Assembly (NCBI GenBank): GCA_035084275.1
Contig: CM068767.1
Span: 9,610,001 to 9,674,000 of the forward strand
DNA from: Hydrolagus colliei
Lineage: Eukaryota
Direction: 5' to 3'
Length of the DNA: 64,000 nucleotides
Both the position numbers and the translations under genes were made by a program. The notes under the pieces were generated by a model. It ran no database searches. It was not told where the DNA came from and saw nothing but the letters and a program-made list of their open reading frames with translations. This document shows, one piece after another, positions 5,343-60,269 of this stretch. Numbering within the stretch: the stretch's first letter is position 1; every line of letters begins with the position of its first letter.

Positions 5343-6140
5343 TCAAACGCTTTGTTCAGCACATTGGAACCACGGATGGGCAAGAACACTATTTATGGTG
5401 CACCGTTCCGCTGGCTCCTTCTTTATCATTTTAGAGATGAGATTTTGGCAACACGTTGAGAGACAAGGTGTTGAAGGAAACTTTAAAGCTTGTGCTTGTA
5501 ACTTGACAAGCTTGGAGAGGTCATTGTCATTGAAAGGCATGCAACCTGTGACCATCAGGTATAGGATGATGCCCAGGCTCCAGATGTCAGCCTTAAAGGG
5601 ATTGTAGACCTCACCATTGAGGATCTCCGGGGCAGCATATGCAGGAGAACCACAGAATGTTGACGAACTGCAATCGTCAGAGCAAGCGAAACCAAAGTCC
5701 GAGAGTTTTGGACAATTTTCATTGATCAGGAGGATATTTTCACATTTCAAGTCTCTGTGAGCGATGCCGAGTTCGTGGCAATATTTCAGGGCCTCAGTAA
5801 TTTGCTTAAAGATCTGCCGGGCAACCCTTTCTGACAGGTGATGTTTGGAATTGACTAATTCGTACAGATCTAATTTGGCCTCCTCCATAACAATGAGCAA
5901 GGTGTCCTGAGATGCAAAAATCTCATGAACCTTGACAATATTGGGGTGATAACACCGAGTTAGTGTTTTGATTTCACGCTTGAGGAACTTGTTGATGTAG
6001 CTCTTTGATAATTTTGATTTATCAATGACTTTTATGGCAACTGACTTGCCAAGTTTGGGAGAGAACGCTTTCCTCACAACAGAGTACGTGCCTTCGCCAA
6101 GCACCTCACCAAGTTGATAACCCAATACGGTAAGGTCCAT
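5343..6140 (-). CDS. TSSK6: Intronless testis-specific serine/threonine kinase, TSSK6-like (265 aa)
   Basis: Complete kinase domain: GEGTYS, VAIK, HRDLKCEN (TSSK signature), DFG, TFCGSPAYAAPE, MVTGCMPF. Kinase-only length and the IVME..DL / MVTGCMPF motifs resemble TSSK6. Orthology is not established. Confidence 0.85.
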   Translation of the reverse strand: MDLTVLGYQLGEVLGEGTYSVVRKAFSPKLGKSVAIKVIDKSKLSKSYINKFLKREIKTLTRCYHPNIVKVHEIFASQDTLLIVMEEAKLDLYELVNSKHHLSERVARQIFKQITEALKYCHELGIAHRDLKCENILLINENCPKLSDFGFACSDDCSSSTFCGSPAYAAPEILNGEVYNPFKADIWSLGIILYLMVTGCMPFNDNDLSKLVKLQAQALKFPSTPCLSTCCQNLISKMIKKEPAERCTINSVLAHPWFQCAEQSV

Positions 6141-6170
6141 TTTAAAAGCAGCGAGGGAGCAGCAACTTGC

Positions 6171-6210
6171 ACTGAGCCCTCGGGCCGGAGGCTTTATATT
6201 TATAAAGCCT
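6171..6210 (-). promoter_or_regulatory. Core promoter: TATA box and initiator
   Basis: Minus-strand TATAAATATAAAG starts at 6204; Inr TCAGT has its A at 6173 (31-nt spacing); ATG follows 33 nt later. The TATA lies within the palindrome AGGCTTTATA-TT-TATAAAGCCT (6189-6210). Confidence 0.7.
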
Positions 6211-6527
6211 TTTATGGAACAGGCCGTCCTGTGCCCGGCACACTCTGTACTATAACCAAATATGGTAGTGTTTTAGTACGGGACGTCCCGTGATCATCAT
6301 TTGACCAAATATGGTCAAAATCTACATCCAAATATGGTGGTTCCAAGGTCAAAAGGCCATATTTGGTGGTGCTGACCAGGCCATTTATGGGGATTGCTAT
6401 ATTTGGCAATTATCATATCTGTCCATGCCATATATGGGAATGTCCATATATGGCAGCCTGAAAAGGGCGGGGGAGGGCATTGCCATATTTGGTAGTTTTT
6501 GTGACCAGGCCAGTTTGCCATATTTGG
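6208..6527. promoter_or_regulatory. Array of ten perfect CArG boxes CC(A/T)6GG
   Basis: Perfect boxes at 6208, 6256, 6305, 6328, 6357, 6381, 6428, 6444, 6483 and 6518; near-matches at 6397 and 6534. Confidence 0.8.
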
Positions 6528-54908: not shown

Positions 54909-55054
54909 GGGGTTAGGGTTAGGGTTAGGATCCTTAGGGTTAGGGTGTTAGGGTTAGGGGGTTAGGGTTAGGGTCATCCTTAGAGTTAGGGTTAGGGTCA
55001 TCCTTAGGGTTAGGGTTAGGGTTAGGGTTAGCCATCCTTAGGGTTAGGGTTAGG
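54909..55054 (+). repeat. Interstitial telomeric repeat (TTAGGG)n with recurrent ATCC interruptions
   Basis: Runs of GGGTTA broken by GGATCC, GTCATCC and GCCATCC. Confidence 0.95.
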
Positions 55055-56152
55055 TTTTATAAATTTCGGGGATCATTGGTACACATATGCTTGTGTTTTC
55101 TTGCCCGTGCCCTGTGTTGGGGTTTATCAAATTTCGTTAGGGCTGATGAATGTGTTTGTATTTTTTTTGTTTTTTTAAAAAAAATCAATATTTTTTTGTG
55201 TGAGGGAGAATTTTTTTTTGGGGGGTGGGTTAGGTGTAGTTAGGGTTATTGTTAGGGTTAGGGTAAGTTTTAGGGTTAGCAGTTAGTGGTTAGGGATAGC
55301 GGTTAGGGTTAGCGGTTAGGTTTTATAAGTTTTGGGGCATGAATGAGTTAAAATTAGGGTTCGACGTTAAGTGTTTGAATGGGGGTTCTGGAAAATTTAT
55401 TTTGTGGGGGGGTTTATTCGTGGAAGTGTTATGGTTAGTTAGGGGTTTGGTTTGGGGGTTAGGGGTTACGGGAGGGGGCTGACTTTAGTGGATGGGGTTG
55501 CGTTCGGGTTCTAGTTTTGCGGCTGTCCTATTTAATTATTTTGTTGTTTGGTTGTTTTAATATGAGTTCAATCCATTAGGTGTTATTGTGTTTAATCTTG
55601 TAATCCATTCCCTCTCTCTCTCTTTCCTTTTTGGTGTTGACCAATGTCTATTATGTTCAATGCCTATTAATTGCATCGATTGTTCCCCATGTTCTATAAA
55701 GTTTTGTTTATAAGTTTGTCCCTATTTTTGTTCTTAATGGCACTCCGGTGGGCTGTGAACCTAGTCCTCAGAGTGTTCCCCGTTTCCCCGATGTATAAGA
55801 GTTGGCATTTTCTACATCTTCTACATTTTCTACATCTAATTGCGTATATTATCCTGATCACATTGTGTTTTATGGTTAATCCTTACTGATGTGCCCGTTC
55901 TGTTTTCTATCTTTTTAGGGGTTACTAGGTAGTTACAAAGACCACATTTTGTGTTTCCACAGTCTGTGGTGTTTGCTTTTCTAAGTTTACTACTGACTAG
56001 CCAGTCTTTGATATTCCTATGTTTTCTGTATGCTGAAACGATTTTGTACTCTCCCAATGTGGTGACGTGCCGTTTCAGTCCCTCAGAGAGAGCGTGTTTG
56101 CTTCAGAGTGAGCGATCTTGGTACTCTTACCATCTTTGGTTACTACTTTGGG
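55046..56152 (-). mobile_element. Penelope-like element (Neptune-type), 5'-truncated copy A with frameshifted GIY-YIG endonuclease and 3' UTR
   Basis: AYRKHRNIKDWLV, Cys linker CGNTKCGLC, IYAIRCRKC...YIGETGNTLRTRFTAH...REREWITRLNTITPNGLNSY* (stop 55557-55559); the 3' UTR is repeated in copy B. Confidence 0.9.
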
Positions 56153-56419: not shown

Positions 56420-57330
56420 TTTTTCAAAAATGATTTTCTGTGGAGGGAAAGACAGTTTCAGGTTATATATGTGGGCAGCAGAGTGAGAGAAAGAGGTTTC
56501 ACACAGGGTGTGTTTAGTTGTTAATGGCTACTCTCCATGTATTCTTTTGTTGGCTGTCCTTTTTAAATTTGAATGTTTAAAACAACTAGGTTAGTTTGTT
56601 TGAGGTAATGTCCTGCTCGTTTAAAGTAATGTTACTCAAATGTCTAAAGTTTAAGTCATTTAGCCCGTCCAAGGCATTTGCTATGACATTTGCTATGAAT
56701 TGTCTGCTTGGGAATTTATTCAATTAGTTCAATTAAATTATACTCTCTCTAGCTCCCCCTGCTGGTATTAGAGTGTTTATTTCTGGTTTTAGTTTTATGT
56801 TTTTTTAACGTTTGGTCTATTTAAATTCTTTTTGACAAAATTGGATTAGTTATGTTAGTTTAAATAATTGGTTTTTTTTAAAAAAATTCTAAGCTGCATT
56901 TTTTTGGGGGTGGTTTGTTTTGGGGAAAGTTAGGGGTTTGTTGTTGCCTTTGTCTTCCCCGTGCTGGGTATGTCGGCCTGGGTTCACATTCACCCTAGCC
57001 CGCTCTCAATTTGTGATCCCACTGTTGTTGTCTGGCAGCACGAATGTTTCTCTCAAACTGGGCCAGCTTTTTTTAAAAAAGATTCACAGTAACAGCCACG
57101 TGCTTGGCTTTTTTTCTGTGTTTACCGGTTTTGGTTTTTTCATCGAGAAACTTTCGTGGCACTTGCAGGGGTTAGGTTTTATAAATTTCGGGCATCATTG
57201 GTACACATAGGCTTGTGTTTTCTCTCCTGTCCCCTGTGCTGGGGTTTTATCAAATTTCGTTAGGGCTCATGAATGCGTTTATTTTTTTCTGTTTTTAAAA
57301 AGAAATATATATTTTTTTGTGTGAGGGAGA

Positions 57331-58547: not shown

Positions 58548-58850
58548 TCAATATGAGTTCAATCCATTAGGTGTTATCGTGTTTAATCTTGTAATCCATT
58601 CCCTCTCTCTCTCTTTCCTTTTTGGTGTTGACCAATGTAAATGGTCACATAATTTAACTCGTCTAAAGAAATCCTGTATGTCTTGTCCTATTTTAATTGG
58701 GCAGGGGTTTTCTGTGGGGACAAAGGTCAAACCCTTATTGAGTATACTAATCTGTGCCTCTGTGGGCTTAAATGACTGGGAGACGTTTACGATATTCGTC
58801 CCCAGGCCTAGGTTCCCCCATGCTGGGGCTCCTGTTTCATTTAGTTTAAA
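58548..58850 (-). pseudogene. PLE ORF2 remnant: N-terminus fused in frame to the endonuclease C-terminus
   Basis: ...KGLTFVPT...DFFRRVKLCDHL|HWSTPKRKEREREWITRLNTITPNGLNSY*; junction at ~58638. Confidence 0.85.
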
Positions 58851-59713
58851 TAATTTGAGCAGTGTTTTAGTAATACTTGGGCTGTTTTTGCTGTCCACTG
58901 GATTTTGTTCGAATTTTGTTCCACCCTGAACTGGGTGGCTGGGATTGTGGGGATTCCATTTTGGTTTTTTTTGGTGAACCGATTAATTTCCTCTAGCGTG
59001 TCCCTTTCTTTTTTACTTAACTGGGGGCTATAGTTACTTTCTACTGTCAGGATTTCCGCGTTGGGGAAAGCCTGCTTGGCCCTTTTTAACATGGCCTGCA
59101 ACTGTTTAGTTGCCGTTTTGGGTTGCTGCTTCCGGTTATGGATACCGAGAGAGAAGATGACCTTCCCGGTCCCTTCGCAAGGTGTGATTTTACTTAATAA
59201 TCTGTCCACATGGTTGAAGTTTGCCTCTGGAAAGGCCTCCACCTGTGTGTGCGCGTTCGGGCAACCTGCTATTTTTGCGAGGTTTTCGTCCCCAATTATT
59301 ATGACTGGTTTTGTTGGGGTTATTGTCCAGTCTGTAATTTTACGGTCTGTCCTTTTGTGGACAGTTACTATCCCTAGGTTTTTATCATTTCCCTGTTGGG
59401 CCCGATGGGGAGCCTGTCCTATATCTGTTCCTGACCCTGTTTCTTTCTCTCCCTGTAGGGAAGGGGCTATTGCTGCCTGGTTTAACCTGGGGACAGCGAC
59501 GGTAACGGGTCTTGTGGGTGGGCGTGGGAGACGTAATTTTGGTTGGCGTTGTTCTAGGGGAGGGGGGTGGATCTGTAACAGGGAGGGTGTGGTGGGGTTA
59601 ATCTGTATTGTTTTTGGGGGTCTAGCTACCCACCAAGAGCCAGCCATCACCGTCGGTGACTGTGGTCGCTCTTGGGATGCCAGGAGAATATCCAGTTCCA
59701 AGTGTACAGACAC
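58841..59713 (-). CDS. PLE-associated ORF1 with Pro/Thr-rich linker and SGNH-hydrolase-like domain (5'-truncated, frame open to ~59840)
   Basis: VIIIGDEN (block I), VEAFPEA (II), VIFSLGIHN (III), KIQWT (V); the listed start is GTG rather than ATG. Confidence 0.7.
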   Translation of the reverse strand: MSVHLELDILLASQERPQSPTVMAGSWWVARPPKTIQINPTTPSLLQIHPPPLEQRQPKLRLPRPPTRPVTVAVPRLNQAAIAPSLQGEKETGSGTDIGQAPHRAQQGNDKNLGIVTVHKRTDRKITDWTITPTKPVIIIGDENLAKIAGCPNAHTQVEAFPEANFNHVDRLLSKITPCEGTGKVIFSLGIHNRKQQPKTATKQLQAMLKRAKQAFPNAEILTVESNYSPQLSKKERDTLEEINRFTKKNQNGIPTIPATQFRVEQNSNKIQWTAKTAQVLLKHCSNYLN

Positions 59714-60269
59714 ATTGGAGCGAACTCTGGATGTGGCTGGCTGGGACGGGAGGGGTGGGGTGGGTGCGTTTAATGTTGTTATTTTCGTTGCTATTGAAAT
59801 TAACCTAACAGACCTGTTCTCCCTAAATAAGGATCTAATCTAAATCTAAAGATCTGAATGTCAGGCAAGTTTCCTTACTCCACTTGCCTCTGTTTACCTA
59901 GCAGTAAGTAGGAACTCAGTTTTAGTCGATTGGTGGATTGCATTTCTTGGAGTAATGATTCCATCAAAATATTTTTAAAAATTGACCAGGACTGTTTGTG
60001 GGACACCGCTTTGCACAATTGGCTGCCATGTTTTGCCCATAAAATATACAATCAATTAACTACAGAATATTTAGTGAATATTTGAGACGCCTCAAAGACG
60101 TGATAAGCTGCTATATCAAATAATAATAATCCTTGATTTGATTAGTGTTGTTCACATCTTCTAGATATATATTACATATGTAGGCGTATTATTACAAGTT
60201 CACGATTGTGTTGACTTTCAATCATTGCTTCTCTTTCTCTAAGAGTCAGATAAAGAGAATGAAGTTTCA

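Follow-up and report, generated by a model that had tools for sequence, protein, structure and literature searches.

The stretch of DNA analysed here (the window) is 64 kb long. On its minus strand lies a damaged copy of a Penelope-like retroelement (PLE), with the end of ORF1 and the start of ORF2 meeting in two reading frames (Table 1). The long ORF1 frame of this copy (59839-58841) ends TAT TTA AAC TAA, and TTTAAAC is found at 58850-58844, in phase with ORF1 and directly before its stop codon, just as the preliminary description had read it. The statement that the -1 frame is a Penelope ORF2 without an ATG between the heptamer and KGLTFVP was likewise borne out: this frame is open from 58982 to 58548, holds no Met in the window copy, reads FKLNETGAPAWGNLGLGTNIVNVS...KGLTFVP and includes ...LFKLNETGAPAWGNLGLGTNIVNVS...LNKGLTFVP. 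The GC-rich sequence CAGGAGCCCC... starts 9 nt 3' of the heptamer. Homology of the window copy to an intact unit of the same family extends from 59763 to 58639 only. About 224 N-terminal codons of ORF1 are missing, and ORF2, which skips at 58639 to its last ~30 residues, lacks the reverse transcriptase (RT) and most of the endonuclease. Judged from these frames, the window copy is dead, able to make neither ORF1 nor a fusion product. Many tRNA-like SINE copies and LINE-tail repeats are scattered over the window (2500-63850), and the Penelope remnant is broken by fragments of this kind around 58540-58320 and 57750-57350. In all, TTTAAAC occurs seven times on the minus strand of the window; a lone heptamer is therefore no better than chance, and the case for frameshifting rests on conservation in relatives.

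Table 1. Features of the Penelope-like copy in the window
Feature	Position	Strand	Basis or remark
Slippery heptamer U UUA AAC	58844..58850	minus	X XXY YYZ phase with ORF1; unaltered in 28/30 genome copies; T TTA AAC in 31/39 distant families ending in Leu-Asn
ORF1 stop TAA, adjoining the heptamer	58841..58843	minus	Stop directly after the site in 30/41 families with a located site
Predicted stimulatory RNA structure, 9-nt spacer	58800..58834	minus	Bulged hairpin or small pseudoknot (AGG/CCU + CCCCAG/CUGGGG)
ORF1 remnant, 5'-truncated: proline-rich linker and C-terminal SGNH-fold domain	58841..59763	minus	Homology, profile match
ORF2 start in the -1 frame, including KGLTFVP (58736-58716)	58639..58844	minus	RT and endonuclease deleted past 58639
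Final ~30 ORF2 codons, in frame across the internal deletion	58548..58638	minus	Translation, comparison with intact copy
Terminal-repeat (pLTR-like) segment of the same family	56681..57288	minus	76% to unit 33-622; degenerate hammerhead-like motifs by eye
Second downstream fragment: Zn-finger linker, broken GIY-YIG, 3' UTR	55449..56085	minus	85% to unit 5580-6217
Family 3' terminus (...GAAATTTATAAAACCTAAC), followed by degenerate (CCCTAA)n	54909..55090	minus	Junction recurs at 12/16 such motifs elsewhere

A DNA search of the same genome gave 40 scored matches among 81 candidates, and three identical 6,627-bp units of the family were found on contig C21. The intact unit carries an ORF1 of 548 aa (counted from its Met) and an ORF2 of 783 aa from stop to stop, which overlap by about 140 nt. 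The first ATG of ORF2 is residue 102, 3' of the conserved KGLTFVP. A shift at the heptamer is predicted to yield a product of 548 + 737 = 1,285 residues. Intact copies thus have two ORFs and not the single continuous one that the preliminary description had named as the case against a frameshift. The heptamer is unaltered in 28 of 30 genome copies, the other two reading TTTTAAC and TTTAAAA, and the two-frame register is common to all 30, with no indel at the heptamer or the stop. The junction is also present in two old interstitial relatives, with about 76% identity there; one reads TTTAAAC TAA, the other TTTAATC TAA.

ORF2 of the intact unit contains an RT with YLDD, a CGNTKCGLC linker and a GIY-YIG domain (Pfam RVT_1, E 3.8e-08; GIY-YIG, E 1e-09). 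The linker conforms to CX2-5CxxC, and two Cys lie between GIY and YIG (VVYAIRCSKCQLLYIG); both are Neptune hallmarks. According to the excerpted text of PMC8557442, the CX2-5CxxC linker is common to Neptune and Nematis, and the two share the architecture RT, linker, GIY-YIG, as seen in the intact ORF2. By its domain architecture, the element is assigned as a Neptune-type, endonuclease-bearing PLE. In the terminal repeat, degenerate tandem hammerhead-like motifs were recognised by eye, two or three in number and with a palindromic AAATTT (L032:8460-8380; window 57270-57170 and 55150-55049, minus strand), and CCTAAC, where copies end, follows the second of them. Rfam gave no hammerhead match in the intact copy, its sole hit on the unit being one chance match. 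Short tandem duplications that keep the frame were also noted in the proline-rich linker of ORF1 in the intact subfamily (L032:5680-5590 and 5420-5330, minus strand), namely three TPFLPPQLA-type repeats and two IHPPPLEQRQPKLSLP repeats.

An ORF2 profile was built from 69 proteins (the query and 68 of its 120 listed relatives). Searching with it gave 79 metagenome loci and eight genome loci, and the N-terminal region of ORF2 was present in 81 of these 87. The metagenome loci with this retroelement are presumably animal DNA in such assemblies. Eight bacterial genome records (L160-L167) also carry it, host DNA contamination being the most likely source; among viral contigs no relative was found. 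Nine loci with a short or broken frame were excluded (L101, L114, L123, L138, L148, L150, L158, L163 and L167), two of which had scored frame 0 and four of which have TTTAAAC. Clustering of the remainder at 70% gave 50 families besides our own, 35-49% identical to it, and removal of L117, whose junction duplicates that of L110, left 49 distant families.

ORF2 lies in the -1 frame relative to ORF1 in 48 of these 49 families. In 37 of the 49, the last seven codons of ORF1 include a strict slippery heptamer and the -1 frame is open there; among control seven-codon windows, 77 of 3337 have a strict heptamer (2.3%). The families are kin by descent, and binomial P values overstate the significance of such contrasts. 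Where ORF1 ends in Leu-Asn (39 families), Leu is TTA in 37 and the full T TTA AAC is present in 31, while for Leu-Asn pairs elsewhere in the same ORFs the counts are 84/365 and 11/365. At these family distances synonymous sites should be saturated. The check proposed in the preliminary description, conservation of heptamer and phase among relatives, therefore came out in its favour, with the site kept at synonymous positions. In the two families that use CTA instead, A AAU UUA or A AAU UUC stands one codon downstream. Fourteen of 48 families have a -1 frame that opens no more than 10-25 nt upstream of the last base of the ORF1 stop, which leaves the heptamer as almost the sole entry to ORF2.

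Twelve of the 49 families have no strict heptamer. Relaxed forms are present in five of them (G/C TTA AAY, G GTA AAC, G GAA AAC), two have T TTT TTA 11 codons upstream, and in L142 TTTAAAC is present with the -1 frame closed. No good slippery site was found near the ORF1 end in L086, L116 and L157. Alternative slippery sites at or near the junction were noted in L132, L136, L153, L119, L162 and L112; these comprise U UUU UUA 11 codons upstream, U UUU UUU, A AAU UUA/C and A AAA AAC.

The boundary is also seen in proteins. The ORF1 SGNH profile had 4,096 matches at E 0.001 (clusters at 50% identity), and the C-terminus of each of the best 150 lies no more than about 16 residues from the point where the SGNH match ends; the longest among these 150 has 902 aa, and none extends into an RT. 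No fused form with the family's own SGNH region was found among proteins of 992-2830 aa, which is weak evidence. On the ORF2 side, x-K-L/P stands upstream of KGL in 47 of 55 relatives that are long enough, and F-K-L in 26 (counts without a chance control); F-K-L is TTT AAA CTN in the -1 reading. One in-frame SGNH-RT-EN protein fused at this junction, P0122 (1,105 aa), was present among the 120 listed ORF2 matches. This protein could represent a genuine single-ORF lineage, or else a copy that carries an indel.

The RNA 3' of the heptamer gave a modest structural signal. For the 50 nt past the heptamer in the window copy the folding energy is -17.1 kcal/mol, with z -2.3 and 4 of 200 shuffled sequences as stable; for the same stretch of the intact sister copy z is -1.1, with 27 of 200 shuffles as stable. 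Over 41 families, the fold z of 40-nt windows was lowest at offsets 0 (-1.04) and +5 (-0.90; s.e. 0.18), the other offsets giving -0.42 to +0.23. One recurring form starts 9 nt past the site, an outer stem of 3 bp being followed by a bulged A and an inner stem of 3-4 bp. With RNAalifold on ten families picked by eye for equal register, six pairs were predicted, four of which show two-sided changes. On 22 picked rows the bulged helix has 57% of its cells paired and 21 two-sided changes and beats 500 of 500 shuffles, but its covariation score of 0.233 hardly exceeds the 0.215 obtained for a slide of one column. Run unguided on sets of 22 and 11 junctions, RNAalifold returned no consensus structure, and several families, L105, L146, L121 and L156 among them, show little or no sign of a stimulator.

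The preliminary description had proposed GC-rich stems about 9 nt downstream, had likened the whole to the coronavirus-type signal and had suggested pseudoknot prediction as a check. What holds of this is the heptamer, which is the same, and a modest stem-loop signal with a fold peak just 3' of it. The structure in many relatives looks like a bulged stem-loop, and a general coronavirus-type pseudoknot was rejected: a crude scan was at shuffle level (9 of 41 families versus 5.8 expected by shuffles), with our own family under the thresholds. Subfamilies in the genome keep CCCCAG/CUGGGG and AGG/CCU, with wobble changes, while the middle G-run varies. Such retention of the arms in our own family would fit either a long hairpin or a small pseudoknot.

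Taken together, these comparisons of sequence make a -1 programmed ribosomal frameshift at the Neptune-type ORF1/ORF2 junction likely. Ribosomes would slip one base back on U UUA AAC, by tandem slippage of tRNA-Leu and tRNA-Asn, and a stem-loop 5-9 nt downstream would stimulate the slip, perhaps aided by the adjoining stop codon. A minority of ribosomes is predicted to make the 1,285-residue ORF1-RT-endonuclease fusion, and most would stop at the adjacent UAA, so that ORF1 (548 aa) could outnumber the fusion in the manner of gag and pol.

A simple possibility is that the shift is a mutation or an assembly error in a single-ORF element, and the in-frame relative P0122, one of the 120 listed matches, shows that a single-ORF form exists. 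However, all 30 genome copies share the register, the distant families agree with it, and contigs of X1, possibly the source sample, show no indel or joint over the region. An assembly error or a private mutation is ruled out by the genome copies and the relatives, and we give this explanation practically no chance. ORF2 might instead be reached by splicing, UUUAAAC/UAA being then a splice or RNA-processing signal. TTTAAACTAA is loosely like a branch-point context. A pyrimidine-tract AG recurs at one offset in at most 4 of 43 families, however, on which count a conserved splice acceptor was rejected, and splicing needs neither the -1 relation seen in 48 of 49 families nor the codon phase of the heptamer. 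Although spliceosomal introns do occur in PLEs according to the excerpted text of PMC4209133, splicing seems to us extremely improbable here. Independent translation of ORF2, by re-initiation or from an internal or non-AUG start, with F-K-L as merely a protein motif, is judged highly improbable. It could draw on the TAAATG that follows the heptamer in our own family and on F-K-L or x-K-L before KGL in 47 of 55 relatives, a count that has no chance control. Yet the ATG of TAAATG belongs to the ORF1 frame, where it starts a run of 10 codons, and an in-frame ATG before KGL is absent in 39 of 50 families and is at scattered positions in the other 11, so a conserved ORF2 ATG was rejected. Moreover, the frame opens just upstream of the heptamer in 14 of 48 families, and the variants G TTA AAC, A AAA AAC, A AAU UUA and G GAA AAC preserve slipperiness, not residues. 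A spliced or ATG-initiated ORF2, the other case named against the frameshift in the preliminary description, thus finds neither a conserved acceptor nor a conserved ATG across families.

In one variant of the frameshift reading the slip is real, but its main drive would come from pausing at the adjacent stop codon or from ribosome queuing, and the stem-loop would not be needed. The stop adjoins the site in 30 of 41 families, from which a termination pause may contribute, and several families have almost no fold. Against this, the average structure peak lies exactly 3' of the site, compensatory pairs are present in the eye-chosen subset of ten families, and in 11 of 41 families the stop is 1-6 codons further on. 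We regard this variant as unlikely.

The upstream partner of the predicted fusion is an SGNH-fold protein. The ORF1 profile of the family matched PDB 4c1b (ORF1-encoded protein), which we take to be the ZfL2-1 esterase, at E 1.7e-10, PAF acetylhydrolases matching more weakly. Pfam leaves ORF1 unnamed, with Lipase_GDSL_2 at E 0.012 for the window copy and nothing for the intact copy. In our own family the catalytic S, G, N and H read E, E, H and Q (window 58844-59353; L032:4645-5154, minus strand), while all four are intact in 38 of 42 other aligned rows. With E-E-H-Q at these positions, the SGNH domain of our own family is probably a non-catalytic scaffold. Losses among the SGNH residues were also seen in L131, L159, L140 and the fused P0122. 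The replacement of all four occurs in a family that looks recently active.

The genomic distribution of the family is polarised. Of the 40 genome matches, 29 are on contigs established as >5 Mb; in 28 of these the distance to an end is no more than 200 kb, and without exception these 28 have the 5' end outward. About 90 kb separate the window from the end of its own contig. The 3'-end motif runs directly into CCCTAA repeats at 12 of 16 occurrences and into the next unit at the other four. At each of eight picked 5' truncation points, CCCTAA repeats precede the element, in one case about 420 of them, and on C34 the last piece of the family lies directly against the terminal TTAGGG tract. No long perfect telomeric tract is present inside the 6,627-bp unit; short CCCTAA runs occur in 17 of 50 relatives, the longest being four repeats. 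Polarised head-to-tail arrays were noted at G000 C21:18684000-18740284, C2:137366001-137386000, C20:12001-22000 and C34:9748664-9758663, and at 54909-55090 of the window. A non-autonomous derivative of ~2.7 kb, made up of the terminal repeat, the 5' UTR and a 200-aa N-terminal frame of ORF1, forms long tandem runs near ends (G000 C2:137366001-137386000, C21:18730285-18740284 and C20:12064-17400).

As far as sequence can tell, the arrays match the Terminon description, here in an element that bears an endonuclease. Endonuclease-targeted insertion into existing telomeric repeats may be their source, and copies may have spread by subtelomeric recombination. A joint reading, to which we give somewhat less than an even chance, would be that a vertebrate Neptune family has turned into a telomere-extending retroelement: its 3' CCUAAC end would attach to TTAGGG overhangs and build HeT-A/TART-like arrays between telomerase tracts, the endonuclease being kept. 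A -1 frameshift common to the whole clade, with its hundreds of families, would set a large excess of catalytically dead SGNH-fold ORF1 over RT, and the junctions would be a natural library of short-hairpin, stop-adjacent signals.

If the frameshift is true for most Neptune-type elements, annotated 'ORF2' proteins begin at the wrong place, and reconstitution of Neptune retrotransposition should use the 1,285-aa fusion together with an excess of ORF1. With dozens of natural variants of the junction, the parts played by stem-loop and stop codon can be put directly to the test. Arrays at chromosome ends of an endonuclease-bearing PLE in a TTAGGG genome bear on the link between PLEs and telomerase.

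The coronavirus ORF1a/1b shift on U UUA AAC and the retroviral gag-pol shifts use a spacer of 5-9 nt and a 3' structure, and set the stoichiometry of structural to enzymatic products. The junction described here has the same heptamer as the coronaviruses and is predicted to resemble these shifts in the other respects, but differs from them in that no three-stem pseudoknot was found, the stop adjoins the heptamer and the element is a non-viral retroelement. Among PLEs, the legend of Fig. 1 in Craig et al. 2021 (PMC8557442) already allows for an ORF1 "separated" via a frameshift with a pseudoknot. A PLE ORF1 frameshift is thus not new as a class, and Neptune-like esterases are already in print. 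The frameshift remark of that legend probably concerns Athena/Terminons. The two-ORF PLEs of the legend (PMC8557442) resemble our own family in having ORF1 upstream of the RT and, as predicted for ours, a frameshift and a 3' RNA structure; our own family differs in its C-terminal GIY-YIG, its SGNH-fold ORF1 and a 3' structure that looks mostly like a bulged stem-loop. In the supplement of that paper, as far as its excerpted text goes, 'frameshift' and 'ORF1' are mentioned for Chlamys only.

Fish and mollusc Neptune-like PLEs are described as carrying esterases (PMC5408684), and SGNH esterases are placed in PLEs also by PMC3905857, whose excerpted text does not mention a frameshift. Neptune-clade elements with an endonuclease share with our own family the RT, CX2-5CxxC, a GIY-YIG with two Cys and an upstream SGNH domain (PMC5408684, PMC3905857). 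In the same excerpts canonical endonuclease-bearing PLEs are described as single-ORF with no mention of a frameshift, whereas our own family has two ORFs, all of S-G-N-H replaced and copies concentrated at chromosome ends. Programmed frameshifting is not mentioned in the excerpted texts of PMC3846280, PMC4209133, PMC11167929, PMC12031113 and bioRxiv 10.64898/2026.07.22.740005 either. To the preliminary description, gag-pol-like expression was not known to be described in a vertebrate Neptune-type PLE. No paper placing a frameshift in Neptune was found, but for PLEs as a class ORF1 frameshifts are already in print. A literature search by title, opening lines or excerpted text, its scope outside the Terminon paper and Repbase, found neither a Neptune frameshift nor vertebrate telomeric PLE arrays, either of which may already be in print. 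Degraded GIY-YIG PLEs bounded by telomere-like repeats are described in sturgeon (excerpted text of PMC12031113).

For the chromosome-end arrays, the nearest known system is that of the Athena/Terminons. As set out in the excerpted text of PMC6431247, these form polarised head-to-tail arrays at chromosome ends, are truncated 5' by telomeric repeats and carry a 3' hammerhead-like motif with a short reverse-complement telomeric stretch, as does our own family, whose hammerhead-like motifs are degenerate candidates recognised by eye. In contrast to these endonuclease-minus elements, our own family has an intact-looking GIY-YIG, TTAGGG repeats, a unit of 6.6 kb and occasional interstitial copies.
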